From Ostreococcus lucimarinus (lineage: Eukaryota), in the NCBI GenBank assembly GCA_000092065.1, contig CP000582.1: a stretch of 64,000 nucleotides of DNA, one strand, 5' to 3'. The notes under the pieces were generated by a model that saw nothing but the letters and a program-made list of their open reading frames with translations, had not been told where the DNA came from and did no database searches. The position numbers were made by a program, and so were the translations under genes. Shown piece by piece: positions 3,519-49,006 of the stretch (within the stretch, counting starts at the first letter, position 1; the number at the start of each line of letters is the position of its first letter).

Positions 3519-3519
3519 T

Positions 3520-4086: not shown

Positions 4087-4191
4087 CCGACCATCGCCCG
4101 CACGCGCGACGACAACTGGCGCGACAGGCGTGGAAAAGACACGAGGCGAACGTGTTTTTCACCAAGGTAGGAATACTCTATTGTAGATGGC

Positions 4192-16600: not shown

Positions 16601-19600
16601 GCCGCATGCGCGCGCGCCGGTGCTCGCGCGACAAGGCATGCCGCGACCGGATGACGGCGCGTCTGAGGCTGGAGCAGCGGACGCTGCTCGAGCGCGCGTG
16701 CGGCGATCCGGCGTGAGCGGCTTCGCGTTCCAGGGCACAAACGCGCACGCAATCATGGCCCGGGGACCCGGACAGGCGACTGCGCCCGGGTACACGGGAA
16801 GCACGCACACGGCGGCGCGTGCGTGGGAGCGTCAGCGCCACTGGTGCGCGCCAGAACGGCACTGCCTCATCGAGTCCGTGCGCGCTCTGCATCCTCGCGA
16901 GGGAGACTCGAGCGCGTTGGCGCGGTCGTGCGTGCGCCTGTGTCGGTCCGCGTCGCTCGCTGGCATGCTTGATCACGCCGTCGGGCTCCGGACGCTGCTA
17001 CCAGGCACAGCGCACGTCGAGATATGTCGAGCCATGGCGGGCGCGCTGGCAGACCAGCCGCTCGCCGACATCTCGCTGTCGCACGTATCTTTTGCAGCGC
17101 CCCTCGAGCTTCGAGCGCCGACGACCGACGTGCTGTGCGACGTCACGCCGCAAGGCGTGGCCCGCGTGGGCGTGCGCGTGTCGTCGTCCTCTGCCGCCGC
17201 GCCGTTCCTCGCGGGCGCGCTCAGCCGCAGAAGCGCCTCAAGAATTACTGCGTCTCCGGCGCACCTCTCGCGAGGACCGGCGATGCCCGCGCTGGACGTG
17301 CAGCCTTGTGTTCACGGCGCGAGCTGGCTGCGCTCGTCGCAGCGACGAGGCCCGGGCGCGGAGCACCGCGTGTACGGCGACATACGCGCGCGTCAGATGT
17401 CCACGCTGTCGGCTGCGGCGTATCACTCGCCGCCCGCAGTGCTCGATGCCGCGCTGCACGCGCTCAGCGCGTGCGCGCCGCCGCCGGGTAGCGATGCGAC
17501 AGAAGAGAGCCCGCACGTCCCGGCCACGATCGGCGGCGTCCGCACGCGAGGCGGGCACTCGGACATATACCGCGCCCGGTTCGCGCTCGCGACGGCTCCG
17601 CCTGAGCGCGGGGAGCGGAACGCGTCCACGCGCAGATCTCGTCACCACCTGTGGGACTGGTCGAGTCTTTCGGCGGCGCATCGAGGGTGCGTGGTGCACG
17701 CGCTGGAGTCTCGACGACTCGGTGGCGCCGCGGTCGTGCGCTCGCGAGCACAACAGCGCTCGAGGGCACCGCCGCCGCGTCGCGCGGCCGCGCCGCGTGT
17801 GCTTTATGGAGTCGGGCAACAGCGCGCGTGCGGCGCGGCGGATGGCCAGGGCGCGCGTCGACGCTCAACCCTCAACTCGCAGTGCTTTGTGGACGACGCG
17901 TCGCACCGCCGCGAGCTGATGGAGACCCACGCGTCACCATCGATCGCGCAAGGCAGCACGCGAAGCAGCACGCGCGCCTCTCTTTGCGCGGTTGCGCTGC
18001 TGCAGGCTTGCGGCGCTCGTGCGCGCGTTTCCGGCGCCCACGTGCGTGCAAACGACATCGTCCACGAGGACGCTTCGGCCGCGCCCGCAGTCTGTGGATC
18101 GTGCGTGCGCGCCACCGTGCAGTCTTCCGCGCAGGAACGCAGCGAGCCATTGGTGCTGAGTGTCGCGAGCGCCCCGCACACCGCGCCAGCCCGAGCGTTG
18201 CGATCGATCGCCGCCGGGGCGTCGATCGCCGGGGCGCTGTGCGTTGAGCGTCTGCTTCCGACGTTCGGTCGCCGGACGCCCGCCGCGTCGCGCGACGGCG
18301 CGGCGACGACCACGGCGTCGCCGGCACCGAAAGTCTCGAGCGTGTTCGTGACTGGCGGTCTGGGCGCGTTGGGTCAGACTTCGGCGGCGTGGTACGCGCA
18401 TCGAGGCGTTCGCCACGCCTACTTGACTGGTCGCCGCGGGCGCGGAGAGTCCCTTCTGCTGCGATGGTCGTCGCGCGGCGGTACCGACGTGAGCGCATTG
18501 CACGTGCTTCGCGTCGACGCGTGTGCGACCGACGAGGCGTCGTACGGCGGTGCGCGCGCGCACGCGCGCGTGCGCGCACACGGCGTGCTGCACGCGGGCG
18601 GCGTGCTACGCGACTCTTTGACTGCTCGCCAATCCGCGTCGGCCCATCGATACGTGTGGTCGTCCAAAGTAGTGTCCGCGCACGCATTGCTCCGCCAGTG
18701 CGTCGGCGTCGAGCGCGGCGCGCGTCACATCGCGCTGTTCTCGTCGGTGGCGGCGCTGCTGGGGAGTCCAGGGCAATGCAACTACAGCGCGGCCAACGCC
18801 GCGCTGGACGCGCGAGCCGCACACGAGTGGTGCCGCGGGTACGCGGTGCAATCCGTGCAGTGGGGCGCGTGGGACGGCGCGGGAATGGCGCTGACAAACG
18901 CGTCTGTACTCAGGAACGCGCGCACGACAGGCATCGGCGTGCTCGATCCGCAAGCCGGGCTCGGGGCCGTACACGTCGCGCTTCAGGGCGCATCAGTGAC
19001 GGGTCGCTGGCGGGCAATCCAAGGCGTCCTGGCCGTCGTCCCGTTCCAGTGGTCCGTGCTCGCGCGCGCGCAGCGCTCGCGCGCGCTGATTGCGGAGTAC
19101 CGCGCGGAGTCGGCGCGGTCGAGCGCTCCAGTCGCCGTCCATCCGGGCGCCGAGGAAGACGCGGCGCGCGATGTGTCAGATGAGAGCGTGCGGCAGATCG
19201 TGGCCTCCGCCGTGACGCGCGCGCTCGGCAGAGACGTGTCGGTGGACGCGTCGCTCATGGAAGAGGGCCTAGACTCGCTCGCGGCGGTCGAGCTCGGAGG
19301 GGCGTTACAAAAGGAAACGGGCGTGAACATGCCGGCCACGCTGGCATTTGACTACCCGACGATCACCGCGATATCTGGGTACCTGAAGGGTGCGATGCTG
19401 GCGCGATCGCGTGCGCGCCAATCGAGCGGCGCGGCGTCCAGCGCCGCTCGCACGCGCGCCGCGAGCGGCGCGGTCGCGCATTCGCGACGTACAACCATTA
19501 CTCAGCTCCCTCGTCTACGTCTATCATACGTTCCGCATGAAGTCAGCCGACGAACGACTCTTGGCATTAGCGGTCAATATTCTCACGAGCTTAGACACTT

Positions 19601-22600
19601 TAGCTCTGCGGGACCTTCGACCAGTAACTTTGAGGGAGTCCTCTTTGTTCGCATTCATAACTCCACCAAGCCCTTACCCGTGCATCCATATTTCATTGGC
19701 AACTTTTTGCGTTGTGACGAACTCGAGTTCGGCTTGTTTGGCGCACCGCACAGCGAATGGACTACTCTGGACGCGCGGCAGATTCTCTTGATTGAGAGTG
19801 TACACACTATCCAGCTGAACAACAGTTCAGACGTTTCATTGCGCACTCTAGAGACGACGGCTGTTCTTGTTGGAGCACAAGCGGTAGATTCAACTGACGA
19901 GCATAGCGTTGAGATACAGTACAACGCCTACTCTGGCGTTGCTTCCGCCTTGAGCGTGCTGTGCGGTCGCGTATCGTACACGTTTGGTATGCGTGGCCCG
20001 TCCGTGTGTGTCGACACCGCGTGCTCCTCCTCGCTCGTGGCCGCGCATGTTGCGAGCTCTCACTTGCGCGATGGATCGTGCGAGGACGCCCTCGTCGCCG
20101 GCGTGAGCGTGAACGTCGGCATCGGCACCTTCCTCGTGGCCACCGCCGCGAGCATGCTATCGTTCGATGGTCGGTGCAAAACCTTGGATGCCAGCGCCGA
20201 CGGTTACGCCAAGGGCGAGTGCTGCGTGGTCCTGCGCGTGTCGGTGGACGGGGCGAGCGCTGGAGCGCCCAAAGCGCCCGATCTTCCAAACGCCGAGTCT
20301 CCCTCTCTCGCTCTTCTCGAACAGACCGGTGTGAACCAGGATGGACGGTCGAGCTCGCTCACCGCACCAAACGGGCCGTCGCAGCAGGCACTCGTGGCCG
20401 ATGCGCTTCTCCGCTCGGGGCTGCACGGCGACGCGCTCGGCAGGCTGGAGATGCACGGCACGGGTACTTCGCTGGGAGATCCGATAGAGGTCGGCGCCGC
20501 GCTTGAGGTTCTCGCGCCGCCGACGCGCGCGGACCGGGCGCCGTCCAGGGGCCCCGCGCTCACGCTTGAGGGCGTGAAGCCACGCGCTGGCCACTGCGAA
20601 CCAGGGGCTGGCGCGGTTGGGTTGCTGTTTGCGATGGCAAACTTGACGGAGCGAGCCGTCGCGTCCCTCGTCCACCTGCGCCAGCTCAACCCTCACGTCG
20701 AGGCCGCGACGCGCCGAAACGCACCGTCGCCGCATGCGCGCGCGCCGGTGCTCGCGCGACAAGGCATGCCGCGACCGGATGACGGCGCGTCTGAGGCTGG
20801 AGCAGCGGACGCTGCTCGAGCGCGCGTGCGGCGATCCGGCGTGAGCGGCTTCGCGTTCCAGGGCACAAACGCGCACGCAATCATGGCCCGGGGACCCGGA
20901 CAGGCGACTGCGCCCGGGTACACGGGAAGCACGCACACGGCGGCGCGTGCGTGGGAGCGTCAGCGCCACTGGTGCGCGCCAGAACGGCACTGCCTCATCG
21001 AGTCCGTGCGCGCTCTTCATCCTCGCGAGGGAGACTCGAGCGCGTTGGCGCGGTCGTGCGTGCGCCTGTGTCGGTCCGCGTCGCTCGCTGGCATGCTTGA
21101 TCACGCCATCGGGCTCCGGACGCTACTACCAGGCACAGCGCACGTCGAGATATGTCGAGCCATGGCGGGCGCGCTGGCAGACCAGCCGCTCGCCGACATC
21201 TCGCTGTCGCACGTATCTTTTGCAGCGCCCCTCGAGCTTCGAGCGCCGACGACCGACGTGCTGTGCGACGTCACGCCGCAAGGCGTGGCCCGCGTGGGCG
21301 TGCGCGTGTCGTCGTCCTCTGCCGCCGCGCCGTTCCTCGCGGGCGCGCTCAGCCGCAGAAGCGCCTCAAGAATTACTGCGTCTCCGGCGCACCTCTCGCG
21401 AGGACCGGCGATGCCCGCGCTGGACGTGCAGCCTTGTGTTCACGGCGCCATCAGACGGAGCGTGCGACGACTCGACGCGGATGATCGAGAGCCAAAGCCT
21501 GCTCGACATGGCGGCTCGGCGTTGTTTTCATCGTTCGTGAGGTGCGTCATGGCAGAGCGAGCCTCTGAAGATCGCTTCGACACGCCATCGTTGGGCAGGC
21601 AGCCGAGCGCGACAGCGCGCGTGGTCTCCTTGACGAAAGCCAGAGATTTCACTACACAAGCTCTCGACAGCATGCCGAAATGCAACGAGATTGAGCTGAG
21701 CGTCGTCAGCGCTGTGTCGAGTAAGGCATCAGGCGCGCACGATGCTGTGCGTGTGAACAACATGCGACATGCGTGCGGCGAAGTGTGTGATCCACAAAGC
21801 TCAAAATCGCACGAGTTCGTCGCTCGGCATCTTGTGCAGTTTGGGTACTTCATCGAGCGCAGCTTGTTTGACGGGGAGCAGTTCTCCGTAACGGCGCACG
21901 AGGCGCGGTTGATGGACCCGCAGCAGCGCGTGCTCCTGGAGAACGCGCTCGCCGCGACGAGCGCGACGCCGCACAGCGCGCCGAAGCCAGCCACAGCCGT
22001 GTCCGTCGGCGCTTGGACGTCTCAGTACGCAGACATGTGCCGCGTGTACGAGCCAACGCCGGGGCCGTACTCTGGCGTTGCTTCCGCCTTGAGCGTGCTG
22101 TGCGGTCGCGTATCGTACACGTTTGGTATGCGTGGCCCGTCCGTGTGTGTCGACACCGCGTGCTCCTCCTCGCTCGTGGCCGCGCATGTTGCGAGCTCTC
22201 ACTTGCGCGATGGATCGTGCGAGGACGCCCTCGTCGCCGGCGTGAGCGTGAACGTCGGCATCGGCACCTTCCTCGTGGCCACCGCCGCGAGCATGCTATC
22301 GTTCGATGGTCGGTGCAAAACCTTGGATGCCAGCGCCGACGGTTACGCCAAGGGCGAGTGCTGCGTGGTCCTGCGCGTGTCGGTGGACGGGGCGAGCGCT
22401 GGAGCGCCCAAAGCGCCCGATCTTCCAAACGCCGAGTCTCCCTCTCTCGCTCTTCTCGAACAGACCGGTGTGAACCAGGATGGACGGTCGAGCTCGCTCA
22501 CCGCACCAAACGGGCCGTCGCAGCAGGCACTCGTGGCCGATGCGCTTCTCCGCTCGGGGCTGCACGGCGACGCGCTCGGCAGGCTGGAGATGCACGGCAC

Positions 22601-24623
22601 AGGTACTTCGCTGGGAGATCCGATAGAGGTCGGCGCCGCGCTTGAGGTTCTCGCGCCGCCGACGCGCGCGGACCGGGCGCCGTCCAGGCCCCCCGCGCTC
22701 ACGCTTGAGGGCGTGAAGCCACGCGCTGGCCACTGCGAACCAGGGGCTGGCGCGGTTGGGTTGCTGTTTGCGATGGCAAACTTGACGGAGCGAGCCGTCG
22801 CGTCCCTCGTCCACCTGCGCCAGCTCAACCCTCACGTCGAGGCCGCGACGCGCCGAAACGCACCGTCGCCGCATGCGCGCGCGCCGGTGCTCGCGCGACA
22901 AGGCATGCCGCGACCGGATGACGGCGCGTCTGAGGCTGGAGCAGCGGACGCTGCTCGAGCGCGCGTGCGGCGATCCGGCGTGAGCGGCTTCGCGTTCCAG
23001 GGCACAAACGCGCACGCAATCATGGCCCGGGGACCCGGACAGGCGACTGCGCCCGGGTACACGGGAAGCACGCACACGGCGGCGCGTGCGTGGGAGCGTC
23101 AGCGCCACTGGTGCGCGCCAGAACGGCACTGCCTCATCGAGTCCGTGCGCGCTCTTCATCCTCGCGAGGGAGACTCGAGCGCGTTGGCGCGGTCGTGCGT
23201 GCGCCTGTGTCGGTCCGCGTCGCTCGCTGGCATGCTTGATCACGCCATCGGGCTCCGGACGCTACTACCAGGCACAGCGCACGTCGAGATATGTCGAGCC
23301 ATGGCGGGCGCGCTGGCAGACCAGCCGCTCGCCGACATCTCGCTGTCGCACGTATCTTTTGCAGCGCCCCTCGAGCTTCGAGCGCCGACGACCGACGTGC
23401 TGTGCGACGTCACGCCGCAAGGCGTGGCCCGCGTGGGCGTGCGCGTGTCGTCGTCCTCTGCCGCCGCGCCGTTCCTCGCGGGCGCGCTCAGCCGCAGAAG
23501 CGCCTCAAGAATTACTGCGTCTCCGGCGCACCTCTCGCGAGGACCGGCGATGCCCGCGCTGGACGTGCAGCCTTGTGTTCACGGCGCGAGCTGGCTGCGC
23601 TCGTCGCAGCGACGAGGCCCGGGCGCGGAGCACCGCGTGTACGGCGACATACGCGCGCGTCAGATGTCCACGCTGTCGGCTGCGGCGTATCACTCGCCGC
23701 CCGCAGTGCTCGATGCCGCGCTGCACGCGCTCAGCGCGTGCGCGCCGCCGCCGGGTAGCGATGCGACAGAAGAGAGCCCGCACGTCCCGGCCACGATCGG
23801 CGGCGTCCGCACGCGAGGCGGGCACTCGGACATGTACCGCGCCCGGTTCGCGCTCGCGACGGCTCCGCCTGAGCGCGGGGAGCGGAACGCGTCCACGCGC
23901 AGATCTCGTCACCACCTGTGGGACTGGTCGAGTCTTTCGGCGGCGCATCGAGGGTGCGTGGTGCACGCGCTGGAGTCTCGACGACTCGGTGGCCTCACGA
24001 CGAATTCATTTTATCATAGCTTTACGTCTACGCAGGCATATAAGTTGGCTCATATTCCACGGCCAGACATCCTATCGCAGTCTTTCACTTCAATGAAGAC
24101 TATAAATGCTGTCGACAAAGCTAGCAGCACATTTACAGAACGCAGTAGTGATGCGATGGAAATTGTTAACGCCGTGCAACGCGAGATTTTGGAAATTTTA
24201 TCAACATTAACGACCAGTCCTGTAAGTTTAGATGATACACTTGCGAGCCACGGATTGGACTCACTGGGCATTGCATATTTTTTTATTCAAGTTGGCAAAC
24301 GGTTCAATGTTGAAGTGACTGTTGACAGTCTTGGCACGAACACCACAGTCAGTAGTATAGTGCATCAGATATCACAGATGCTTAGTGCAAGGGTGATTTT
24401 CCTACACACCAAGGACCTGGTGCGCGAGCGAAAAGCCGACAGCTCCTCAAGAAGAGGAAGGAGCACTGCGATCACATCGATGGTGTCTGCATACCGTCGA
24501 CACTTGCAGTCAACTGAATTCGAGCCCAAAGCCTGTTTTGCAAGAGGCGTACTTGCTTGCGCAATATTTACTATATTTATCATTGCGTACGGATATCACG
24601 CACACAGATTCGACATGTTTTAG
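10647..24623 (+). CDS. Type I modular polyketide synthase, AT-less (trans-AT-like); domain order KS-DH-[KR-ACP-KS-DH]x2-KS-DH-ACP with a C-terminal hydrophobic tail; 4658 aa, single intronless ORF
   Basis: KS motifs: EAxxMDPQQRLLLE-like CMDPQQRLLLL and RLMDPQQRVLLE; active-site DTACSSSLVALH / DTACSSSLVAAH; HGTGTPLGDPIE / HGTGTSLGDPIE; FQGTNAH. DH motifs: LLDHRVADMHLMPATGHLE and LDHAVGLRTLLPGTAHVE plus DAALHAL. KR motifs: VFVTGGLGALG (NADPH site) and SPGQCNYSAANAALD. ACP motifs: EEGLDSLAAVEL and terminal ASHGLDSLGIAYF. No GHSxG acyltransferase motif and no ER anywhere. The true start Met may be internal (for example MSNLDTRAMSNPYF). Confidence 0.85.
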   Translation: MTYDIVLQRFTPTSQGPTTPYPCAIKANSKWKLVRLKRLALERFRCPMLTRHKPESVQNGTPRNESRMSNLDTRAMSNPYFQVGRWDCTDELEGCQFSAPHTSVSVPNFEEIQTLHYTCVYEVAITCTQRHDMHNDEFAHVLSSVIELANRVDLTRLRQHHSIDNFATHVLTFRFILDLLRQTYQEYIKGSIENNSFEHVEFTFNNCMDGTHGMATCFKPNKKHSHLCYILDISQAERSCNGRTDDTKCVHDKITMNDRVLSAAKIPDNAVNKQFSASILNDVYGFDSSLFHISQSETLCMDPQQRLLLLAAADLYLSNTRVCQHDDSFCVHVGVSWNDFEEIRRKYSADFFSTYDSTGTSISVASGRIAYYFDFKGCAVTIDTACSSSLVALHQSMYAAGSLRESSALVCGINLILTTTMTHRFQLAGMMSSEHRCMTFDARADGYVRSEACNIVLLHFNGFTKTHRNVLRHDVHMSCVVNQDGTSTGLTAPNGTAQRNLMNELLSDVYNPSKHVGAKIHAHGTGTPLGDPIEVFAINSALSFSSLCRLYVSEKSMRGHTEPASGLCSTILAFVSGAQCKLHGQPHLQQLNNHILTSVDESIFQRSLHSSFPLTSMASVTTVSSFAFQGTNAMASLTYIDKCSIRVIRNTSGLRSLVKLETESPVRLPYTFSCLSIVNGKMIQLTSMIHDKTLKRLLDHRVADMHLMPATGHLELERELTKCALVRNEPYLLTKIAFMLPLKLDESNQLITEMNTHGRLRVGCGSGISNYWCSTARLQIPVGRAWCTDRTFYLTSKLVSRRFKGATATIAGTTPILDSQNVVNPCIQDASLQCSAYVLNTSAFASDTTYMDCVSLLKLPTTIQDVIVVNQTGKILVRSTHVDMLQKTQHVTESNNSVTSNSSSNNKTQTWIHRLLCKVSTVRMKAGLRTRTCLELARLLYHARQQRVLISNMQNLREVGSLHAPELMPIMREMGRKSMQDINSASASLCAVALLQACGARARVSGAHVRANDIVHEDASAAPAVCGSCVRATVQSSAQERSEPLVLSVASAPHTAPARALRSIAAGASIAGALCVERLLPAFGRRTPAASRDGAATTTASPAPKVSSVFVTGGLGALGQTSAAWYAHRGVRHAYLTGRRGRGESLLLRWSSRGGTDVSALHVLRVDACATDEASYGGARAHARVRAHGVLHAGGVLRDSLTARQSASAHRYVWSSKVVSAHALLRQCVGVERGARHIALFSSVAALLGSPGQCNYSAANAALDARAAHEWCRGYAVQSVQWGAWDGAGMALTNASVLRNARTTGIGVLDPQAGLGAVHVALQGASVTGRWRAIQGVLAVVPFQWSVLARAQRSRALIAEYRAESARSSAPVAVHPGAEEDAARDVSDESVRQIVASAVTRALGRDVSVDASLMEEGLDSLAAVELGGALQKETGVNMPATLAFDYPTITAISGYLKGAMLARSRARQSSGAASSAARTRAASGAVAHSRDSMPGIASNAREILGLAPVVMAIRRSVRRLDADDREPKPARHGGSALFSSFVRCVMAERASEDRFDTPSLGRQPSATARVVSLTKARDFTTQALDSMPKCNEIELSVVSAVSSKASGAHDAVRVNNMRHACGEVCDPQSSKSHEFVARRLVQFGYFIERSLFDGEQFSVTAHEARLMDPQQRVLLENALAATSATPHSAPKPATAVSVGAWTSQYADMCRVYEPTPGPYSGVASALSVLCGRVSYTFGMRGPSVCVDTACSSSLVAAHVASSHLRDGSCEDALVAGVSVNVGIGTFLVATAASMLSFDGRCKTLDASADGYAKGECCVVLRVSVDGASAGAPKAPDLPNAESPSLALLEQTGVNQDGRSSSLTAPNGPSQQALVADALLRSGLHGDALGRLEMHGTGTSLGDPIEVGAALEVLAPPTRADRAPSRGPALTLEGVKPRAGHCEPGAGAVGLLFAMANLTERAVASLVHLRQLNPHVEAATRRNAPSPHARAPVLARQGMPRPDDGASEAGAADAARARVRRSGVSGFAFQGTNAHAIMARGPGQATAPGYTGSTHTAARAWERQRHWCAPERHCLIESVRALHPREGDSSALARSCVRLCRSASLAGMLDHAVGLRTLLPGTAHVEICRAMAGALADQPLADISLSHVSFAAPLELRAPTTDVLCDVTPQGVARVGVRVSSSSAAAPFLAGALSRRSASRITASPAHLSRGPAMPALDVQPCVHGASWLRSSQRRGPGAEHRVYGDIRARQMSTLSAAAYHSPPAVLDAALHALSACAPPPGSDATEESPHVPATIGGVRTRGGHSDIYRARFALATAPPERGERNASTRRSRHHLWDWSSLSAAHRGCVVHALESRRLGGAAVVRSRAQQRSRAPPPRRAAAPRVLYGVGQQRACGAADGQGARRRSTLNSQCFVDDASHRRELMETHASPSIAQGSTRSSTRASLCAVALLQACGARARVSGAHVRANDIVHEDASAAPAVCGSCVRATVQSSAQERSEPLVLSVASAPHTAPARALRSIAAGASIAGALCVERLLPTFGRRTPAASRDGAATTTASPAPKVSSVFVTGGLGALGQTSAAWYAHRGVRHAYLTGRRGRGESLLLRWSSRGGTDVSALHVLRVDACATDEASYGGARAHARVRAHGVLHAGGVLRDSLTARQSASAHRYVWSSKVVSAHALLRQCVGVERGARHIALFSSVAALLGSPGQCNYSAANAALDARAAHEWCRGYAVQSVQWGAWDGAGMALTNASVLRNARTTGIGVLDPQAGLGAVHVALQGASVTGRWRAIQGVLAVVPFQWSVLARAQRSRALIAEYRAESARSSAPVAVHPGAEEDAARDVSDESVRQIVASAVTRALGRDVSVDASLMEEGLDSLAAVELGGALQKETGVNMPATLAFDYPTITAISGYLKGAMLARSRARQSSGAASSAARTRAASGAVAHSRRTTITQLPRLRLSYVPHEVSRRTTLGISGQYSHELRHFSSAGPSTSNFEGVLFVRIHNSTKPLPVHPYFIGNFLRCDELEFGLFGAPHSEWTTLDARQILLIESVHTIQLNNSSDVSLRTLETTAVLVGAQAVDSTDEHSVEIQYNAYSGVASALSVLCGRVSYTFGMRGPSVCVDTACSSSLVAAHVASSHLRDGSCEDALVAGVSVNVGIGTFLVATAASMLSFDGRCKTLDASADGYAKGECCVVLRVSVDGASAGAPKAPDLPNAESPSLALLEQTGVNQDGRSSSLTAPNGPSQQALVADALLRSGLHGDALGRLEMHGTGTSLGDPIEVGAALEVLAPPTRADRAPSRGPALTLEGVKPRAGHCEPGAGAVGLLFAMANLTERAVASLVHLRQLNPHVEAATRRNAPSPHARAPVLARQGMPRPDDGASEAGAADAARARVRRSGVSGFAFQGTNAHAIMARGPGQATAPGYTGSTHTAARAWERQRHWCAPERHCLIESVRALHPREGDSSALARSCVRLCRSASLAGMLDHAIGLRTLLPGTAHVEICRAMAGALADQPLADISLSHVSFAAPLELRAPTTDVLCDVTPQGVARVGVRVSSSSAAAPFLAGALSRRSASRITASPAHLSRGPAMPALDVQPCVHGAIRRSVRRLDADDREPKPARHGGSALFSSFVRCVMAERASEDRFDTPSLGRQPSATARVVSLTKARDFTTQALDSMPKCNEIELSVVSAVSSKASGAHDAVRVNNMRHACGEVCDPQSSKSHEFVARHLVQFGYFIERSLFDGEQFSVTAHEARLMDPQQRVLLENALAATSATPHSAPKPATAVSVGAWTSQYADMCRVYEPTPGPYSGVASALSVLCGRVSYTFGMRGPSVCVDTACSSSLVAAHVASSHLRDGSCEDALVAGVSVNVGIGTFLVATAASMLSFDGRCKTLDASADGYAKGECCVVLRVSVDGASAGAPKAPDLPNAESPSLALLEQTGVNQDGRSSSLTAPNGPSQQALVADALLRSGLHGDALGRLEMHGTGTSLGDPIEVGAALEVLAPPTRADRAPSRPPALTLEGVKPRAGHCEPGAGAVGLLFAMANLTERAVASLVHLRQLNPHVEAATRRNAPSPHARAPVLARQGMPRPDDGASEAGAADAARARVRRSGVSGFAFQGTNAHAIMARGPGQATAPGYTGSTHTAARAWERQRHWCAPERHCLIESVRALHPREGDSSALARSCVRLCRSASLAGMLDHAIGLRTLLPGTAHVEICRAMAGALADQPLADISLSHVSFAAPLELRAPTTDVLCDVTPQGVARVGVRVSSSSAAAPFLAGALSRRSASRITASPAHLSRGPAMPALDVQPCVHGASWLRSSQRRGPGAEHRVYGDIRARQMSTLSAAAYHSPPAVLDAALHALSACAPPPGSDATEESPHVPATIGGVRTRGGHSDMYRARFALATAPPERGERNASTRRSRHHLWDWSSLSAAHRGCVVHALESRRLGGLTTNSFYHSFTSTQAYKLAHIPRPDILSQSFTSMKTINAVDKASSTFTERSSDAMEIVNAVQREILEILSTLTTSPVSLDDTLASHGLDSLGIAYFFIQVGKRFNVEVTVDSLGTNTTVSSIVHQISQMLSARVIFLHTKDLVRERKADSSSRRGRSTAITSMVSAYRRHLQSTEFEPKACFARGVLACAIFTIFIIAYGYHAHRFDMF
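13605..23993. repeat. 10.4-kb block of near-identical tandem segmental duplications inside the PKS ORF. Segments: a 13605-15115 = 17976-19486 (KR-ACP). b2 15182-15800 = 21449-22067 (linker plus KS N-terminus). c 15801-17320 = 19929-21448 = 22068-23587 (KS core plus DH N-half). d 17321-17975, partial copy 23588-23993. Order is a-b-c-d-a-b'-c-b2-c-d'.
   Basis: The offsets 4371, 4128 and 6267 nt were verified at several junctions. Copies differ by only a few SNPs (for example caatcttcc/cagtcttcc, gagcggctg/gagcgtctg, RRLVQ/RHLVQ, SRGP/SRPP). The block is about 70% GC against about 47% in the flanks. Confidence 0.85.
19487..19928 (+). repeat. Divergent low-GC paralogue (b') of the linker / KS-N-terminus segment, replacing the 685-nt GC-rich b segment in module copy 2
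   Basis: It encodes FGLFGAPHSEWTTLDARQILLIESVHTIQ...TAVLVGAQAVDSTDEHSVEIQYNAYSGVAS. This aligns with FSVTAHEARLMDPQQRVLLENALAATSA...TAVSVGAWTSQYADMCRVYEPTPGPYSGVAS of the other copies. Nucleotide composition resembles the host flanks. Confidence 0.7.
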
Positions 24624-24795: not shown

Positions 24796-25677
24796 GTGAT
24801 GCCGAGGCGCACATCATTAGCCAACGGCAGCTCGCTGTACGACGGGTTGCGATTTAAGTCGAGCGGGTTCAAGCGTTCGGGCAGGAAAGTGAACTTTTAC
24901 ACGTGTAGTACGATCGACGACTCGGACAGAAACGCGTCCTCGACGGGGAGATGCACGTTCGAGGCGGAGATCCGGCACAGAGCCGCGACGGACGAGTACT
25001 TCATCACCAAGTACGTCGGCCATTCGTTCGGTTGCACCGCGCTCTCGCCCCACATCGACGGGGAAACGCGAGCCGAGCTCGTCGATGACGTGCAAATGCA
25101 AGCCATATCCCTGCAACGAGGTCGCGTCGCTGTACAATCGTGTATCGATTACGTGTTCCGGCGCTACTCGTACGTCGTCGACGAAGCGCCGGCTGCGTCG
25201 TTACTTCAGTGCGTGCGGCGACGAAGTTCGGTGGCCACTCGCAGAGAGGCTCTTAAGCGCTTCGCTCAGACGAAAGTGCGATCGAAATTACAGGGCGAAC
25301 TCATGACCTGCATCGCGCACTCGCGCCAAGTCATAACCTCGTTGAGCCTGACCGAACGCCCGACGTCACGCGACATTCGAAAGTATTATCATGTGTTCGG
25401 ATTGCTGCACACGCACTGCAGTCGTCTTCCGGAGTTCGACTCGCTCGCAACCGTATGGATGGCCGCAGATACGACTAGCAGCGCCGCGCTCATTCATGCG
25501 CTCGAGCTCGGCATCAAAAAATTCGACAACGCACTGCGCACCGTTCGCCCCGCGACTGCCTCACAAACTGAAGCCTTGCACAACGCTCACGGCCATCTTC
25601 CTCCTTACGATCTCAGTGAAGCCGAGGCGTTGACGGCTCTTCGTAGTATAGCGCGTTCTGCCCAAACACGTTCGTAG
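24796..25677 (+). CDS. Hypothetical protein (293 aa), no recognisable domain; immediately downstream of the PKS
   Basis: Long ORF with host-like composition, preceded by the 23-nt tandem repeat. I could not recognise any motif. Confidence 0.35.
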   Translation: MMPRRTSLANGSSLYDGLRFKSSGFKRSGRKVNFYTCSTIDDSDRNASSTGRCTFEAEIRHRAATDEYFITKYVGHSFGCTALSPHIDGETRAELVDDVQMQAISLQRGRVAVQSCIDYVFRRYSYVVDEAPAASLLQCVRRRSSVATRREALKRFAQTKVRSKLQGELMTCIAHSRQVITSLSLTERPTSRDIRKYYHVFGLLHTHCSRLPEFDSLATVWMAADTTSSAALIHALELGIKKFDNALRTVRPATASQTEALHNAHGHLPPYDLSEAEALTALRSIARSAQTRS

Positions 25678-26194
25678 CGAAGCTTCTTTGTTAAAGATGT
25701 CAAACATCGTTAACTATGTCATCTTTCCATAGTTTAAACCTCGTTTGCCTTTTTCACCATCAAGCGAAGCGAACCTATTGGATTTCACAACCCTCGTTGA
25801 CGTGTCACTTGAGGTCCAGCTCAGCTCGCCGTCATCGTCAGGACGCGGAAGAATCACACTGCGTTGCGCGCTGACCGGACTTCAAGAGCAAGAACAAAAT
25901 TGGTCGCTAATCCACAGCCAGTGCAACGATAGCAGTACAGTTCCTCTCTTCCGACAGCTCTGGTGTGTTTCCCAGCTCATGCCTGGCTCAGAGCCGCCGC
26001 CCACCATGGACCGGACGGACATAGCCACGTCTAGAAAACTCAGCCCGGAAGGCACGAGTCAAGGCGACCGTGAAATGATGAGCTGGAGCCTTGCTTACGC
26101 GAGCAGGATACTACATACTCGAAAAAAATCGAAAGGGAAGCGCAAGTTCACATTTCAAGTGCGTGCTTTTATTACTTCATATTTTTTTCCTTAA

Positions 26195-35896: not shown

Positions 35897-35960
35897 TAAC
35901 CTATAGGCGAGGTGTATGTAACCAGTCACTATAAAGTGCCTACTGGTAGGTTACGATTCC
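35897..35960. repeat. Second, degenerate copy of the 5'-end palindromic motif (ggtaacctataggcga...cactataaagtgcctactggtaggttacgattcc) in the BiP upstream region
   Basis: Shares taaagtgcctaNNNggttacgattc and gtaacctaNNggc with 58..96. Confidence 0.5.
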
Positions 35961-36169
35961 ACATTACCTATATGGTACGTGGAATATGTACTTTACTTCA
36001 TATGTTGAAAAAACACGCAAAAGCGAGAGTTCTCCCGACGCACGACCAATCATTTTTCACTATTTAGAAAAATGCTTGATTTTGATTGGCTACGTGATGA
36101 GCTCGCACGCTTCAAGGAGCCACGAGCGCACCGCTCGGCAGACTGCGACGCGATCACCCTTTCGACAAG

Positions 36170-38158
36170 ATGCCGATCAAAAGAGCGTCATACCGCAACG
36201 CGGTGGTGTGCGCTTGCGCTTCTCTTTTCCTCTTCGCCGTTTGCGCTTTGCCAATCAACGCCGAAAATCCTACTGAAATCACGGGCACGGTGATCGGCAT
36301 AGATCTCGGCACGACGTACTCTTGCGTTGGTGCATACGTAAACGGTAAAGTCGAGATCATCGCTAATGATCAAGGGAACAGAATCACACCATCTTACGTC
36401 GCATTCACCGATTCTGAAAGACTAATCGGAGATTCGGCCAAGAACCAGGCGTCTGCCAATCCTACTCGGACGGTGTTTGATGCAAAGCGGCTCATCGGCC
36501 GAAAATTCACGGACAAAGAAGTACAACGCGATCTTAAGATGTTCCCATTCAAAGTTGTGGACAAAGACAGTAAGCCATGCATTGAAGTTGAACTCAAAGA
36601 AGGCAAGAAGGTTTTCCAGGCTGAAGAAATTTCAGCGATGGTTCTCACGAAGATGAAGGAGACCGCCGAGGCGTACCTGGGTAAGGATATCAAACACGCC
36701 GTCGTAACTGTCCCAGCGTATTTCAACGACGCACAGCGTCAAGCGACAAAAGATGCTGGTGTTATCGCTGGCTTAAACGTCGCCCGCATCATTAACGAAC
36801 CCACAGCTGCGGCGATTGCATATGGGTTGGACAAGAAAGGCGAGAAAAACATTCTTGTTTTTGATCTCGGAGGAGGTACGTTCGACGTATCGATTCTCAC
36901 GATCGACAACGGTGTTTTTGAAGTCATCTCCACGAACGGAGATACTCATTTAGGCGGTGAGGACTTCGATCAACGTATCATGGAATATTTCATGAAACTC
37001 ATCAAGCGCAAGCACGGCAAGGACGTATCAGGCGACGTGAAGGCTGTGCAAAAGCTTAGACGTGAAGCCGAAAGGGCTAAGCGAACTCTTTCCAATCAAC
37101 ATCAAGTGCGAGTCGAAATCGAAGCTCTTTTCGATGGGATCGATTTCTCTGAACCCCTTACTCGCGCCCGATTTGAAGAGCTGAACAACGACCTCTTCCG
37201 CAAGACCATGGGACCTGTCAAAAAAGCCATGGATGACGCGGGCATGAAGAAGAGCGAAATCGACGAAATTGTGTTGGTCGGTGGTTCGACTCGAATCCCG
37301 AAGGTTCAGGACCTCCTTCGAGACTTCTTCGACGGCAAGGAACCAAACAGAGGAGTCAATCCTGACGAAGCTGTTGCGTACGGCGCCGCTGTGCAAGGTG
37401 GAATACTTTCGGGTGAAGGCGGCGATGAAACCAAAGATATCCTCTTATTAGACGTGGCACCGCTTACTCAAGGTATTGAAACTGTTGGAGGAGTTATGAC
37501 GAAGCTCATCCCCCGTAATACGGTTATCCCAACTAAGAAGTCACAAACTTTCACCACTTATCAGGACAACCAGCAGACGGTAATGATCCAGGTTTTCGAA
37601 GGCGAACGAGCGATGACTAAAGATAATCATCTTTTGGGTAAGTTCGAGCTCACCTCAATCCCTCCAGCTCCTCGCGGTGTGCCTCAGATTGAGGTCACTT
37701 TTGAAATCGACGCAAATGGCATCCTGAACGTTGGCGCTGAAGACAAGGGAACAGGCAAATCAGAAAAGATCACCATAACGAACGACAAAGGACGGTTGTC
37801 GCAAGAAGAAATTGAGCGCATGGTCGAAGAAGCAGAAGAATTTGCGGAAGAGGATAGGAAGACGAAGGAACGCATTGACTCGCGTAATAGTCTTGAGACG
37901 TTTGCGTACAACATGAAAAACACGATTTCTGACTCCGACAAACTCGCTGACAAGCTCGACGACGACGACAAAAACACGATTGAGGAAGCAGTCAAAGAGA
38001 CTCTTGACTGGTTGGATGAAAATCAAAGCGCTGAAAAAGAAGACTACGACGAACAGCTGAAGCAGCTCGAAGAAGTCTGCAACCCTATTGTGGCCAAAGC
38101 GTATCAGAGCGCGGAAACGGACGATTCGGAGACTGTTGACGAACACGACGAACTTTAA
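36170..38158 (+). CDS. HSPA5: ER-lumenal Hsp70 chaperone BiP/GRP78, with signal peptide and C-terminal HDEL
   Basis: Signal peptide [31 protein letters not shown]. Hsp70 signatures: [38 protein letters not shown]. The protein ends ...VDEHDEL. Intronless. Confidence 0.9.
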
Positions 38159-38276
38159 TGTCTGTTCACGGTGGCACGCTTGAAGATTGCAACGCGTAAG
38201 AGACGTAAGAGATTGAGTAGCATGATTTTGTATTAAGCAGTGCCTTCATCCTTCCATGTTTTCGTTTACATCTGAG

Positions 38277-39130
38277 CTATCCCGCCCTCAACCGTACAGA
38301 GTGCCGTTGAATCAGAATGCCGTTGAATCGATCAATGCCCTCTTCGCTAAACTTAGTACCACAGAGTTTAAAAAATGTGAAAGCAGTCAGCAAACTATCA
38401 CTTCCAGCTTGATGTTGTGGACCAATCCTCTCTACTTGCAATAAATCAGCGAGTTTGTTCAGTCCACCGTGTATATTGCCTAGTCGCTTCATCATGAGTT
38501 TCATATCGTAAACTTGTGGGAAGTACTGGTTCAACAGCTCAAAGAACTCGCTTTCTTTTTCTGGAAGTTCTTTACAAGTTGGCAGTTTCAGCAAGTACCC
38601 GAAATCGTAGCCACTGTGAAATGTGATCCAACTCTCTTCATCATTCAATACTACATCACTGACCATCAACAACTCCCCAAACTTTTTGACGTCGATACCG
38701 CGCACTTCGAAGGTAACAAAATCAATGCCGCTTTGTTTCAAAAGCTCTATTGAGTCGCGCGCGTATACATCTTCCCGGAGGCTGAACTCTTTGAAATTGA
38801 ATTGCCAGATACAGTATTGACCATTTACGTGTGCAAGATGTCCGTCGCCGTCAGTGAATGTCAGCCCTAACTGTATAAAGCATATCAACGTTGCAACGCA
38901 GCATGTGATAGTGAAAATCGGACTGTATATAGGGTTGAAAGCCCTTGACTATTGACTTCGTATATTGCGAGGAATTACGGTCTATGTATTCTCCGTTTCG
39001 GCGAATCCAGCTAAAAACGCTTCGGCACAGTTTTTGTGCCGTTGAGCGTCCAGAGGCGTGCTAGCTGAAGTCGGAACAACAACGCCCACCATCGGGTAGC
39101 CACTAGAACACAATAGTAACATCTGCATCA
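38277..39130 (-). CDS. CCR4-NOT deadenylase subunit CAF1/POP2 (CNOT7/8-like), with an apparent frame discontinuity near 38886-38895
   Basis: ORF 38277..38888 gives ICFIQLGLTF...HSGYDFGYLLK...GPQHQAGSDSLLT (DEDDh nuclease motifs). Immediately upstream, in a different frame, SDFHYHMLRCNVDML aligns with the conserved ADYQYQLLRCNVDLL. The two frames differ by +1 with no room for an intron. The 5' end beyond ~39000 is unresolved. Confidence 0.6.
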
Positions 39131-44441: not shown

Positions 44442-45728
44442 GTGACTGGACAAGCACTGTTTAAGCTCTTTGAAATGACCTCTTTCGACAAGCTTGGTTT
44501 AAGCGGCGTACTGCTACGTAATATTCGGCAGCTAGGTTTTACAGAGCCTAGTTCTGTGCAAAAGTCTTGCATCCCGCCGATCCTTCAGGGAAGGGATGTC
44601 ATCGGCATTGCCAACACAGGAAGTGGAAAAACAGCTGCCTTTGCCCTGCCCGTTGTGCACGTATTGAGTGTAGACCCACATGGCGTCTTTGCGCTCTGCC
44701 TTAGCCCTACGCGGGAACTGGCCTATCAGATAGCTGAACAGTTTGCAGTTTTCAGCGTCGGAATGTCTCTCAGGTGTGAAGTGGTAATTGGTGGTGAGGA
44801 CCTACTTCGACAGGCCAGCTCACTATCGAAACGTCCGCATATTGTTGTCGCAACGCCTGGACGTTTACTAGAGCACTTCATGCACTCCTCTGATACCATA
44901 GAATGCTTTCAGAGACTCAAGTTCTTGATTTTAGACGAGGCGGATAGACTTCTAGATTCCTCCTTTGAGGCTGAGCTCCGATATCTGTTGACAAATTTGC
45001 CACAGAAGCGCCAGACTCTGATGTTTTCTGCCACCATAACACCAAGCGTTATAGCACTCAAGCCACTCCTCGGTCAACGTGCTTTCTACTATGAAGAAAA
45101 AGGTGAATTAACGACGCCCACCGGGTGCGCGCAATACTACTGTTTCATGCCCGAAAAAGTCAAGGATACGTACTTGGTTCACGTGTTGAGAGAACTTGTG
45201 TCAAGCAAGTCCACACGCGCCATGATATTTTGCCCTACAGTTCAGAAGTGTGAGATGGTATCGCATATGCTTCATAATCTCGGTATAGCTGCATGTTCTC
45301 TACATGCAGCGAAGAAACAGAGAGATCGACACTCCACATTGAACGCTTTTAAGAGTACAATGGTGAAGATTTTAGTCGCGACAGATGTTGCGGCGCGAGG
45401 ACTTGACTTGCCTGACGTTGAATTGGTGGTCAACTACGATATACCCTCAGATCCTCGTCAGTACATTCACCGAATCGGTCGAACTGCTCGATTTCACGCG
45501 ACTGGTCAAGCTATATCGCTCGTCACGCAGTATGATGTAGGAAAAATCAAGAAAATAGAAAAACACCTTGGGCACGAACTCGAAGAATTTCATGTGCAAG
45601 AAGCAGATGTTAATAAGTTGGTGGGAGAAGTTTTTGCTTCTAGAAAGATGGCCAAATTACACATGGCTTCCCCAGGCGGATTCGATGAGCAGCTCAGTGC
45701 AAAGAAGAAGCGACAATCGGCTAAGTAA
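44442..45728 (+). CDS. DEAD-box ATP-dependent RNA helicase, DDX49/Dbp8-like
   Basis: Q motif FDKLGLS...SSVQ. Motif I ANTGSGKTAAF. Ia PTRELAYQI. Ib ATPGRLLEH. II LDEADRLLD (DEAD). III SAT. VI HRIGRTARFHATG. Close to Dbp8/DDX49. Confidence 0.85.
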   Translation: MTGQALFKLFEMTSFDKLGLSGVLLRNIRQLGFTEPSSVQKSCIPPILQGRDVIGIANTGSGKTAAFALPVVHVLSVDPHGVFALCLSPTRELAYQIAEQFAVFSVGMSLRCEVVIGGEDLLRQASSLSKRPHIVVATPGRLLEHFMHSSDTIECFQRLKFLILDEADRLLDSSFEAELRYLLTNLPQKRQTLMFSATITPSVIALKPLLGQRAFYYEEKGELTTPTGCAQYYCFMPEKVKDTYLVHVLRELVSSKSTRAMIFCPTVQKCEMVSHMLHNLGIAACSLHAAKKQRDRHSTLNAFKSTMVKILVATDVAARGLDLPDVELVVNYDIPSDPRQYIHRIGRTARFHATGQAISLVTQYDVGKIKKIEKHLGHELEEFHVQEADVNKLVGEVFASRKMAKLHMASPGGFDEQLSAKKKRQSAK

Positions 45729-45831
45729 TGTTTAGACATTTTGTTTTATATACCTATATATAGGTACCTAGTATTGTAATATTACACGGTACTACGCCAG
45801 ATTACGTAGTTTTTTTATCGCATATTGCTGA

Positions 45832-45867
45832 GAAACCTTGGGGCGTGGTTCCACGCCCCAAGGTTTC
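45832..45867. repeat. Perfect 17-nt-arm hairpin, gaaaccttggggcgtgg tt ccacgccccaaggtttc, ~100 nt downstream of the DDX49 stop; also a 16-nt palindrome tacctatatataggta at about 45758-45773
   Basis: Reverse complement verified by eye. A possible 3'-end or regulatory hairpin. The cccaaggtttc core recurs at 46036-46046. Confidence 0.55.
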
Positions 45868-45910
45868 CAGAAAGTAATACATACTGATATCATACGTTCG
45901 CCGACATATA

Positions 45911-46134
45911 GAGAATGAACCCAATCCCGTATTATAGTGGTTCTAACGCATATGTCTACACTACATGACCTAGACCTACATATAGACTTAGCGCGTATGA
46001 ATAAGCATCGGACAAGCACGCACGGCATCCATCGCGACTTATAAACCCAAGGTTTCTCAATTTAGACTTTCGCCGTTTTGCGATGGTGTATAATAAGCGT
46101 TGACAACACTATAATACAGGATTGGGTTCATCTC
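45911..46134. mobile_element. MITE-like element (about 224 bp) with about 38-bp imperfect terminal inverted repeats, lying in the promoter of the aconitase B gene
   Basis: Left TIR gagaatgaacccaatcccgtattatagtggttctaacgc (45911-45949). Reverse complement of the right TIR (46097-46134) is gagatgaacccaatcctgtattatagtgttgtcaacgc, about 33/38 identical. The core is AT-rich and non-coding. Confidence 0.55.
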
Positions 46135-46159
46135 ATGTGTCAATATCTCTCAGCCACAG

Positions 46160-49006
46160 GTGTGGCGCAGCACTCGGTCGATCACAGTTTTTTTATTCAG
46201 CTGCACCAGTTCGCACGCGGAATTTTCCATAACTCGCGACCCGAACCCGATGAATGTACGAGCAGCGCACCGTACGCTTCAATCACTTGTGAGAGTGCGA
46301 AGTTTCGGGCTACTCGGCTGCCGGCTCGCACGGTGTACGTCAGACTTAGCGGACAGCTCAACAACTCTGTTGCCGTTGTTGCGTACACGAAGTACAGGCG
46401 TAATACCGGTTATCAACGTGCAGTCGAGCCGTAGCGCATGCGTCGGTACAAGGGGGATTCTAGATGAGTATGAACAGCATAAAAACGACAGGGCCCAACT
46501 CGGTATACCCGCAAAACCTCTCTCTGCGAAGCAAGTATCAGAACTGATTGCCTTGCTGGAAGCACCGATCAGCGAAGAAGAAGACCGCATATATGATATG
46601 CTAGTAAACTGCATTTCACCTGGTGTCGATGAAGCGGCATATGTTAAGGCAGGTTGGCTTGCAAGTGTAAGCAAAGGCAAGACTGTGAGCCCGTTAGTAT
46701 CGCGGGAAGATGCCGTCCGTATCCTTGGCACCATGCAGGGTGGATACAACATCTCGCCTCTTATTGATGCACTTGATTATGACGACTTGGGTCGCATTGC
46801 CGCTGCCGCTCTTTCTGACACCCTGTTGATATTCGATGCATTTTACGATGTTCAAGAGAAAGCAGATAAAGCAAATAAGTATGCCATGCAAGTAGTGCAG
46901 AGTTGGGCGGACGCAGAATGGTTCACAAAGAAGAGCCCACCACCATCAAAAATCACTGTAACAGTGTTCAAAGTGCCAGGTGAAACAAATACCGATGATC
47001 TTTCGCCCGCTCAAGATGCATGGAGTCGCCCCGATATTCCTCTGCACGCCCTTGCGATGCTCAAATCACCGCGTGAAGGAATTCAAAACCCGATTTCTCA
47101 AATCGACGAACTCAAAAAACTTGGATATCCACTGGCGTATGTTGGCGACGTCGTTGGGACTGGTTCGTCACGTAAGTCTGCAACGAATTCTGTCTTGTGG
47201 CACATGGGTATTGACATTCCGAACGTTCCCAATAAACGCACTGGAGGAGTATGCATCGGTGGTAAAATTGCTCCAATTTTCTTCAACACAATGGAGGACA
47301 GTGGGGCATTCCCTATCGAGATGGACGTGAAGAATATACACATGGGTGATGTCATAGATATATTCCCGTATGAGGGTTTAGTCAAGAAACATGGCACAAA
47401 TGAGGTTATCACAACTTTTTCCCTGAAGAGTCCTGTGCTATTGGATGAAATTCAGGCTGGTGGGCGCATCCCACTCATTATTGGTCGATCGTTGACTGAT
47501 AAAGCTAGAAATGCATTGGGTCTAGAGCCTTCTGAAGTATTTCAAGTGCCCCAGGTCTCTAAATCACGTTCTAAGGGGTTTACACTCGCACAGAAGATGG
47601 TGGGGAAGGCATGTGGTGTGGCTGGGATACTTCCCGGCACATACTGCGAACCTCGTGTAACGACTGTGGGGAGTCAAGATACGACTGGTCCTATGACACG
47701 TGACGAGTTGAAGGATCTGGCTTGTCTTGGTTTCACCGCCGATTTAGTCATGCAGTCTTTTTGCCATACGGCTGCATATCCCAAGCCTGTTGATGTTGAC
47801 ACTCACCACACTCTCCCCACTTTTATTCGCAACCGTGGCGGTGTATCGCTTAGACCAGGAGATGGGGTCATACACAGCTGGCTGAATCGTATGCTCTTAC
47901 CTGATACAGTAGGTACAGGTGGCGACTCGCACACTCGATTCCCGATTGGGATTTCGTTTCCAGCTGGCTCTGGTTTAGTAGCATTCGGTGCTGCCACTGG
48001 AGTTATTCCTCTCGACATGCCAGAATCAGTACTTGTTCGTTTCACTGGGCATCTACAGCCAGGTATTACTTTGCGGGATCTTGTCCACGCTATTCCACTG
48101 CAGGCAATTGAAGATGGATTACTTACAGTCGCAAAAGAAGACAAAGTCAACGCCTTTAGTGGGCGTATTTTGGAAATTGAAGGTCTTGAGCATCTGAAGT
48201 GTGAACAAGCATTTGAACTGTCAGACGCTAGTGCTGAAAGAAGTGCGGCTGGCTGTACAATTAAGCTCGACGAAGCAAGCGTAAAGGAGTATCTTACTAG
48301 TAACGTTGCTCTTCTTAAGTGGATGATAGCCAATGATTATGGTGAGGTTCGTACTCTCGAGCGCAGAATCCTCGCGATGCAACAATGGCTCGCTGCCCCA
48401 GAGCTTTTACGGGCTGATGATGATGCTGAGTACGCTGCGACGATCGAAATTGATTTGAACGCAATCACAGAACCTATATTATGTGCACCGAATGATCCAG
48501 ATGACGCACGTACACTTTCTTCTGTAGTTGGTGATAAAGTTGACGAGGTGTTCATAGGCTCTTGCATGACGAACATTGGTCATTTCAGAGCTGCGGCAAA
48601 GCTTTTGAACGACAATCTCAGTCAGCTTCCCACTCGACTTTGGGTGGCACCCCCAACAAAGATGGACGAATTGCAGCTGAAAGTTGAAGGACATTACAGC
48701 ACTTTTGCTACGGTAGGCGCGAGGACAGAGATGCCAGGGTGCTCTTTGTGTATGGGAAACCAAGCGAGAGTTGCTGAAAAGAGCACAGTAGTTTCTACAA
48801 GTACTCGGAACTTTCCCAATCGTCTTGGTAAAGGTGCAAATGTTTATCTAGCATCTGCAGAACTTTCTGCTGTTTGCGCGATTCTAGGCCGAATACCATC
48901 AAAGGAAGAATACTTGAGCCATGTTGAAGTGCTTACGAACAGTACTGACACGTACCAGTACCTCAACTTCGACAAATTGAGCTATTACACAGATGTACGC
49001 GAGTAA
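46160..49006 (+). CDS. acnB: Bacterial-type aconitate hydratase B (AcnB family), with about 90-aa N-terminal presequence (probable mitochondrial targeting; likely start [10 protein letters not shown] at about 46250)
   Basis: After the presequence, [37 protein letters not shown]...[19 protein letters not shown] is collinear with E. coli AcnB MLEEYRKHVAERAAEGIAPKPLDANQMAALVELLKNP...[19 protein letters not shown]. Fe-S ligand region [27 protein letters not shown] and SCMTNIGH are present. Intronless. Confidence 0.8.

Follow-up and report, generated by a model that had tools for sequence, protein, structure and literature searches.

Probable nested transposon relics, including opposed copies of a 165-bp repeat, upstream of the aconitase gene AcnB in Ostreococcus lucimarinus

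The AcnB upstream region and its chromosomal setting

The window, by which we mean the whole stretch of 64,000 nucleotides analysed here (Ostreococcus lucimarinus, GCA_000092065.1, contig CP000582.1), is eukaryotic nuclear DNA, and a Pfam domain search found eukaryotic housekeeping genes throughout. Its gene content includes a cyclin, an XPG nuclease, UTP20, an AP-complex mu subunit, Hsp70, Ndc80, a WD40 protein, a DEAD-box helicase, an SRP receptor, a DXP synthase and a modular polyketide synthase of 4658 aa. Giant polyketide synthases are a reported trait of Mamiellales outlier regions. The present one is an uninterrupted ORF (10647-24623) for a modular type I enzyme in which several of the KS, KR, DH and ACP domains are repeated; the ORF has a GC content of 66-71%, compared with about 45% around it, and inverted-repeat pairs inside it recur 4.37 kb apart. 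Once this gene is set aside, the GC content of the window is about 45%, which fits the low-GC "outlier" part of chromosome 2, a chromosome part known in Mamiellales (bioRxiv 10.1101/2025.04.21.649811). The window is taken to be part of the chromosome 2 low-GC outlier region of O. lucimarinus. The O. tauri orthologue of Ile-tRNA synthetase and O. tauri AcnB both lie on one chromosome 2 contig, and this linkage is consistent with the outlier region.

Read from the ATG at 46250, AcnB is residue for residue XP_001416185.1, the aconitate hydratase of O. lucimarinus CCE9901, and the extra 70 or so aa at its N terminus resemble an organelle transit peptide. The GTG at 46160 is the start of a mechanical ORF only, while the annotated start is the ATG at 46250. 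An earlier note had described a MITE-like insertion at 45911-46134, ending 25 nt before the AcnB ORF; that distance is true only of the mechanical ORF from GTG 46160. Counted from the ATG, the first-drawn end (46134) is 115 nt upstream and the true right end (46152) is 97 nt upstream. Between the helicase and AcnB, pieces of two repeat families, here called A and B, were delineated as follows, where L061 is a locus of the sister lineage described below.

45729-45828 (+): unique DNA past the DEAD-box helicase stop codon, probably the helicase 3' UTR; 45756-45842 is 79% identical to L061
45829-45842 (-): 14-nt remnant TGAGAAACCTTGGG, reverse complement of the family A 3' terminus (profile positions 153-165)
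45832-45867 (no strand): perfect hairpin with a 17-bp stem, from an inverted-repeat search
45870-45890 (+): relic of a family B terminal inverted repeat, GAAAGTAATACATACTGATAT; its 21 nt are found exactly at 3 other distinct sites
45903/45913-46059 (+): family A copy without its first 11-18 nt, ending ...CCCAAGGTTTCTCA; nhmmer profile 19-165 at 45913-46059, E = 5.6e-49
46060-46086 (no strand): unique spacer ATTTAGACTTTCGCCGTTTTGCGATGG, 27-33 nt between two family A pieces; no repeat match elsewhere by blastn
46086/46092-46152 (-): 5' fragment of a second family A copy, TGAGAGATATTGACACATGAGATGAACCC..., 61-67 nt; nhmmer profile 1-61 at 46152 to 46092, E = 3.4e-12; blastn 46086-46153
46153-46249 (+): unique DNA up to the ATG, a conserved block adjoining the AcnB start codon and probably its core promoter and 5' UTR; 46153-46260 is 81% identical to L061
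46250-49006 (+): AcnB-type aconitase, 918 aa (Pfam Aconitase_B_N, Aconitase_2_N and Aconitase)

Within the intergenic region, only the family A segments and the family B relic recur elsewhere. The transposon-relic stretch covers about 425 bp from the helicase 3' end to the conserved AcnB block, and the cluster itself about 325 bp. A terminator-like stem with a T-run at 45791-45820 was returned by a bacterial promoter/terminator scan, which is not meaningful here because the host is eukaryotic. An Rfam match in 45000-47000 (rliH, 13.7 bits against a cutoff of 100) was sub-threshold and was discarded as chance only. As a difference between strains, L057-L059 carry an 11-nt deletion at 45762-45772, just past the helicase stop codon.

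The inverted repeat of the earlier note does exist at its place. Its arms (45915-45953 and 46093-46131) are 39 nt long, 85% complementary and 139 nt apart; with gaps they reach 45903-45961 and 46086-46141 (about 57 nt) at 81%. The 25-nt arm core occurs exactly twice in the 64-kb window, both times in the arms, where shuffles expect 0.00. Folded as single-stranded DNA, 45895-46160 gave -40.5 kcal/mol compared with -24.5 ± 3.4 for shuffles (z = -4.76), and none of 200 shuffles was as good. The note had also pointed to a motif common to the element and the hairpin at 45832-45867, and this motif (CCCAAGGTTTC) was found again. It is 14 nt long and inverted, with TGAGAAACCTTGGG at 45829-45842 set against 46046-46059; the 13-nt motif pattern gave 2 matches with 0.04 expected. 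As the motif cccaaggtttc is the 3' end of the family A unit, the suspected relation between the element and the hairpin 60 nt upstream proved correct: the hairpin carries that 3' terminus.

Copies, unit and target sites of family A

The arm core GAACCCAATCCNGTATTATAG was used as the query in one scan of JGI metagenome contigs, which returned 45 stretches. Two of them were the AcnB locus itself and two were chance matches without shared flanks, while the rest came down to about 13 sites told apart by their flanks. Family A therefore occupies at least 13 distinct sites besides the AcnB locus in metagenome contigs of the same species complex. At least six sites are found in assembly JACLAB01 alone, and up to three lie on a single contig of 135-187 kb. 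With these copy numbers and the 5-bp target-site duplications described below, the multi-copy family that the earlier note had proposed to look for is present in the metagenome contigs. GC content is low at all family A loci and averages 47%. Some of the contigs have islands of 98-99% identity in common with the window, and hence they come from the same species complex. A scan of viral and prokaryotic genome collections for the core gave no matches.

Multiple alignment and a profile (165 nt) defined family A as a non-coding unit of 163-169 bp. Its ends read 5'-TGAGAGATAATG...CCCAAGGTTTCTCA-3', or at greater length 5'-TGAGAGATAATGACACATGAGATGAACCCAATCCCGTATTATAGTG...CGCGACTTATAAACCCAAGGTTTCTCA-3'. 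The termini are 5'-TG...CA-3', and the unit's own terminal inverted repeat is only 5-7 nt long (TGAGAGA / TGAGAAA). Six of the eight distinct full-length copies read TGAGAGA...TTTCTCA, and the remaining two end in TCG or TAA. Exact 5-bp target-site duplications flank five of the eight full-length sites (TGGAC, CCTTC, AATAC, CTCTT and ATCTC), and a sixth shows TTGGG once an 11-nt tandem duplication of the terminus is discounted. A 5-mer match of this kind would arise by chance about once in 1000 cases, which identifies family A as a transposed unit with a size of 165 bp. It is this unit that the duplications bracket, and not an inverted-repeat pair. No inverted partner of the terminus was present within 2.5 kb at any family A site outside the AcnB locus. 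The full-length copies in L020 and L028 are without target-site duplications and have 140 nt in common past the unit's 3' end; this extension contains no recognisable primer-binding site (no TGG) adjoining the unit.

Several family A sites offered observations of their own. L012 contains a further AcnB gene at 2722-5340 (-), about 72% identical to every fetched Ostreococcus AcnB, and a family A copy with a bracketing target-site duplication at 6231-6393, about 0.8 kb upstream of that gene. This divergent AcnB could be a paralogue, the other haplotype or a gene of another taxon. In L054, the same family A site lies some 6 kb away from an Hsp70 gene 100% identical to that of the window. L042 (2047-2188) and L019 differ by a 142-nt insertion/deletion, which lies about 40 nt downstream from a family A copy and directly adjoins a family B end. 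It shows no clear target-site duplication.

Structure and origin of the composite

When the window was compared with these copies, the inverted repeat resolved into separate pieces. The (+) copy, which differs from the family consensus by about 5% and shares 87-93% identity with copies at other sites (blastn, alignments from 45903), provides the left "TIR" and the "core" as first noted, and the (-) fragment at 46086/46092-46152 provides the right "TIR". Both of these "TIRs" of about 38 bp are thus 5' regions of two opposed family A copies and not the ends of one MITE. The boundaries drawn at 45911-46134 shifted as well: the right end is 46152, and the left arm corresponds to the 5' part of a copy short of its first 11-18 nt. 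No target-site duplication, which the earlier note had suggested looking for, flanks 45911-46134 or 45903-46152. What remains of the MITE claim is the derivation from a mobile element of a multi-copy family; the single element bounded by terminal inverted repeats of about 38 bp does not. An inverted pair of partial repeats can pass for a MITE, and a plausible misreading is hereby put right.

The exact AcnB protein is encoded on many marine metagenome contigs, and their intergenic DNA equals that of the window save for a 5-nt indel. The composite was present in all eight compared contigs of the window's lineage, two AcnB variants one residue apart being included among them. Only point differences were seen, some of them inside the composite.

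A sister lineage (L061-L063) has its AcnB in the same 90%-identity cluster, with coding DNA 92-95% identical and the gene order kept. At the same spot it carries one complete, diverged family A copy in (-) orientation (E ~1e-18), whose left junction is the window's TGAGAAACCTTGGG. Just right of this copy in L061, GACTTTCGCCGTTTTGCGATG of the spacer (46065-46085) is matched at 20 of 21 positions. Where the window has the (-) 5' fragment, L061 has about 73 unrelated nt, and the fragment is absent from the sister lineage. The roughly 100 nt by the ATG and 90 nt past the helicase are 79-81% identical between the window and L061. Since the same-site copy of L061-L063 has the same left junction and right-flank sequence, the old (-) copy predates the lineage split. 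The window's (+) copy is only 67% identical to the L061 copy at the same site, as opposed to 87-93% to copies elsewhere; it thus arrived later or was converted. Its right junction (TCA|ATT) nevertheless falls at the same point as that of the old (-) copy in L061. No family A copy was found at the AcnB loci of O. tauri (L003) and of the P0002, P0003 and P0005 lineages, where the intergenic DNA is unalignable and AcnB is 76-81% identical to that of the window. The comparison of AcnB promoters proposed in the earlier note showed a family A copy in another arrangement in the sister lineage and none in distant relatives. The absence in the latter shows only that the element is lacking there.

The left edge of the composite contains traces of another family. 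In L050, family B is a 3.7-kb copy with inverted ends at about 4457-4480 and 7940-7969 and an ORF at 5866-7269 (-) with a DDE_1 domain (E = 1.7e-8). Judged from these sequence features, family B is a pogo/Tc1-mariner-like DNA transposon. The likeness to pogo and Tc1-mariner elements lies in the inverted ends and the DDE_1 ORF of the related L050 copy, whereas the window relic keeps only about 21-30 nt of one end. Tc1/mariner elements are known from Ostreococcus outlier regions (bioRxiv 10.1101/2025.04.21.649811). All family B ends read ...ACTGATA(T/C), so that the exact terminus, and hence a TA target-site duplication, is ambiguous. The end GGGACGTGGAAAGTAATACAT is uninterrupted in L015, L050, L027, L035 and L042. 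In the window, GCGTGG and AAAG are separated by 22 extra nt, whereas the two adjoin directly in all other family B ends. The right arm and loop of the hairpin (about 45849-45870) accordingly look like a 22-nt inverted duplication inserted in the family B end relic, to which GGGGCGTGG at 45840-45848 probably also belongs. Another difference between strains is a 5-nt GATAT repeat gain in L001 at window position 45887, at the end of this relic.

L015 (2517-3650) and L050 (4231-8033) hold one family A copy split by a 175-nt piece of no known kind and a family B element. The two contigs differ in the length of the latter, which measures 3.7 kb and has the DDE_1 ORF in one of them but measures about 1 kb in the other; this site thus carries an autonomous family B copy and its deletion derivative.

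The composite is probably a set of ordinary nested transposon relics, with two family A copies of about 165 bp in opposite orientations, most likely solo LTRs or LTR-derived, and no function indicated. The data show that an old (-) family A copy was in place before the sister-lineage split, with only its last 14 nt still recognisable in the window as the remnant at 45829-45842. They also show a (+) copy that lacks its first 11-18 nt and, 27-33 nt beyond it, the (-) 5' fragment of 61-67 nt. In this scenario the (+) copy would have followed the old one, and a further event would have left the fragment. We infer the order of these events, and also the loss of the first 11-18 nt of the (+) copy by later insertion and deletion, including that of the pogo-like element with its end at 45870-45890. 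Because the 5' regions of separate copies face each other, giving the apparent "TIRs", the inverted repeat would be a by-product of separate insertions. The gap may be the sole stretch of this compact gene pair where insertions survive. A nested insertion, in which the (-) fragment and the 14-nt remnant were the halves of one copy split by the (+) copy, was rejected: the spacer at 46060-46086 is unique DNA and lies outside the copy in L061. The arrangement resembles the clusters of nested transposons that occupy intergenic "safe havens" in compact genomes, where several families and insertions, some truncated or set side by side in inverted orientation, crowd into a few hundred bp between essential genes. 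It differs from them in nothing unusual, apart from being tiny.

Two other origins were weighed against separate insertions. If one MITE of about 224-260 bp, bearing terminal inverted repeats of 38-60 bp, had inserted whole upstream of AcnB, this would account for the inverted repeat, which is real and folds significantly better than shuffles, and the arm sequence is indeed repeated in the population's genomes. The second arm, however, is found at none of the approximately 13 other sites; the target-site duplications bracket the 165-nt unit and none flanks the composite. Moreover, the right arm is the unit's first 61-67 nt reversed, the left arm derives from the 5' part of a copy lacking its first 11-18 nt, and the 27 nt of unique DNA between the pieces are shared with a sister lineage lacking the right arm. 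We consider such a single element extremely unlikely. Less implausible, although still improbable, is a palindrome formed in place when the one ancestral (-) copy underwent inversion, fold-back or template-switch rearrangement. On both outer sides, the block 45829-46059 has the same junctions as the L061 (-) copy, the unit's 3' end stands at both edges in inverted form, and the neighbouring perfect hairpin resembles a templated inverted duplication. Given the coinciding right junctions, independent insertion requires an added deletion at microhomology (TCTCA), and in-place rearrangement thus stays a minor rival. It is opposed by the identity values of the (+) copy, which at 87-93% to other sites but 67% to the L061 copy, with flanks at 79-81%, bespeak a newer arrival or conversion. 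The (-) 5' fragment, situated beyond the shared unique spacer and without a counterpart in L061, likewise argues for separate insertions.

Class and significance of family A

Family A is not a TIR-MITE. It is, like MITEs such as Stowaway and Tourist, small, non-coding and multi-copy, with target-site duplications and locations beside genes. Unlike them, it has no terminal inverted repeats of 10 nt or more and its duplication is 5 bp rather than TA or TWA, the 38-bp "TIRs" coming from two copies. Micromonas, a related picoalga of the Mamiellales, has introner elements, which are short repeats (<200 bp). Compared by location only, they differ from family A, whose copies are intergenic and not in introns.

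The TG...CA ends, the short terminal inverted repeat and the constant 5-bp duplication are together a signature of integrase-type (DDE) integration. In L020 and L028 the whole unit is followed by 140 shared nt, which fits an LTR with internal sequence better than a transposon terminus. We therefore lean, by a modest degree, towards a solo LTR. Solo LTRs and miniature LTR derivatives of the Ty1/copia or gypsy type are similar in their TG...CA ends, short terminal inverted repeat and 5-bp duplications, and also in being non-coding, scattered over intergenic sites, nested and truncated. O. tauri has documented LTR retrotransposons as well as miniature derivatives, e.g. retrostreo2 and its TRIM (PMC5082852). 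Family A departs from this picture in that 165 bp is at the short end for an LTR. Paired direct copies, a primer-binding site, a polypurine tract and gag-pol were not found in the 584 kb of fetched loci, in which a crude motif scan gave no reverse transcriptase hits either. Sites s12 and s2, 15 kb apart on one contig, were tried as the two LTRs of one element and rejected, as ERCC1, Ile-tRNA synthetase and eIF3c lie between them.

A less likely assignment, which deserves some weight, is a non-autonomous DNA transposon with minimal terminal inverted repeats, e.g. one moved by an integrase-like DDE transposase; the architecture of the composite would be unchanged by it. The uniform length of 163-169 bp, the non-coding nature, the TGAGAGA / TGAGAAA ends and the exact 5-bp duplications agree with such an element. 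So does the failure to find LTR-retrotransposon coding sequence or paired copies in 584 kb, and DDE transposons do occur in the same region (PIF/Harbinger in the window, the pogo-like element in L050). On the other hand, TG...CA ends with a 5-bp target-site duplication are the classic LTR signature, a terminal inverted repeat of 5-7 nt is far below typical MITE length, and in L020 and L028 the unit is complete including its 3' end before the 140 nt in common. No autonomous partner with family A ends was seen in the window or in the 584 kb of loci, the L015/L050 case being family A interrupted by other elements.

As to function, the composite appears to have no required one, and the core promoter would lie in the conserved block at 46153-46249. 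The earlier note had suggested that the element could donate regulatory sequence to AcnB. The sequence comparison speaks against this, for about 100 nt by the ATG are conserved in the sister lineage in spite of its different transposon arrangement. Co-option of the composite for AcnB regulation or for helicase transcript termination, through a cruciform or hairpin or through a donated TATA box (TATAAA at 46040-46045, pointing to AcnB), would suit its presence in the eight compared contigs and its strong predicted fold. LTRs are also able to carry promoters. Their promoter capacity is discussed in PMC5082852. However, the TATAAA is about 205 nt from the ATG, point differences between strains fall within the composite, the AcnB loci of distant relatives are without a family A copy, and the sister lineage retains its ATG-proximal block. 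Co-option is thus very unlikely, and the composite is of little consequence for gene function.

We regard it as unlikely, too, that family A represents a recently active and previously undescribed miniature element (LTR-derived or of another integrase type) that is confined to the low-GC outlier region of O. lucimarinus and prefers sites just upstream of genes. If this were true, the repeated hits at AcnB (old copy, young copy and fragment) together with the L012 copy about 0.8 kb upstream of its AcnB would mean promoter-targeted integration and not survivorship. Family A is a new element of an already known kind, and its nested arrangement here is ordinary. Domain-based surveys have called the outlier region of O. 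lucimarinus transposon-poor (bioRxiv 10.1101/2025.04.21.649811). The region does contain small non-coding mobile elements, of a sort that domain-based surveys would miss. With its clean 5-bp duplications and its variants between contigs, family A could mark structural change in a hypervariable chromosome region.

Other repeats and variants were noticed in the window. A true TIR element of about 851 bp lies at 3429-4279, with terminal inverted repeats of 86-90 nt that are 97% identical. It encloses an ORF at 3520-4086 (-) without a Pfam hit, its interior recurs in L013 and L035 at 90-93% identity, and a PIF/Harbinger DDE_Tnp_4 ORF (4446-6239) adjoins it. Kinship of family A with this element was rejected, since the alignment score did not exceed that of shuffles. 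Two stretches match other loci as islands of 98-99% identity only, with both flanks unrelated: 24833-25780 (a 293-aa ORF) in L014 and L051, and 35956-38925 (Hsp70 and its neighbour) in L054. On the sequences compared, such island-only matches suggest mosaic or haplotype-like structural variation in this chromosome region. Family A site s3, which is absent from the window, is about 2.4 kb from one such island in the metagenome contigs. At 119-155 the window has a perfect palindrome with 18-nt arms (ATATGTATGATATGATAT / ATATCATATCATACATAT), and ATATGATAT-type runs resembling it occur within the old family A copy of L061.
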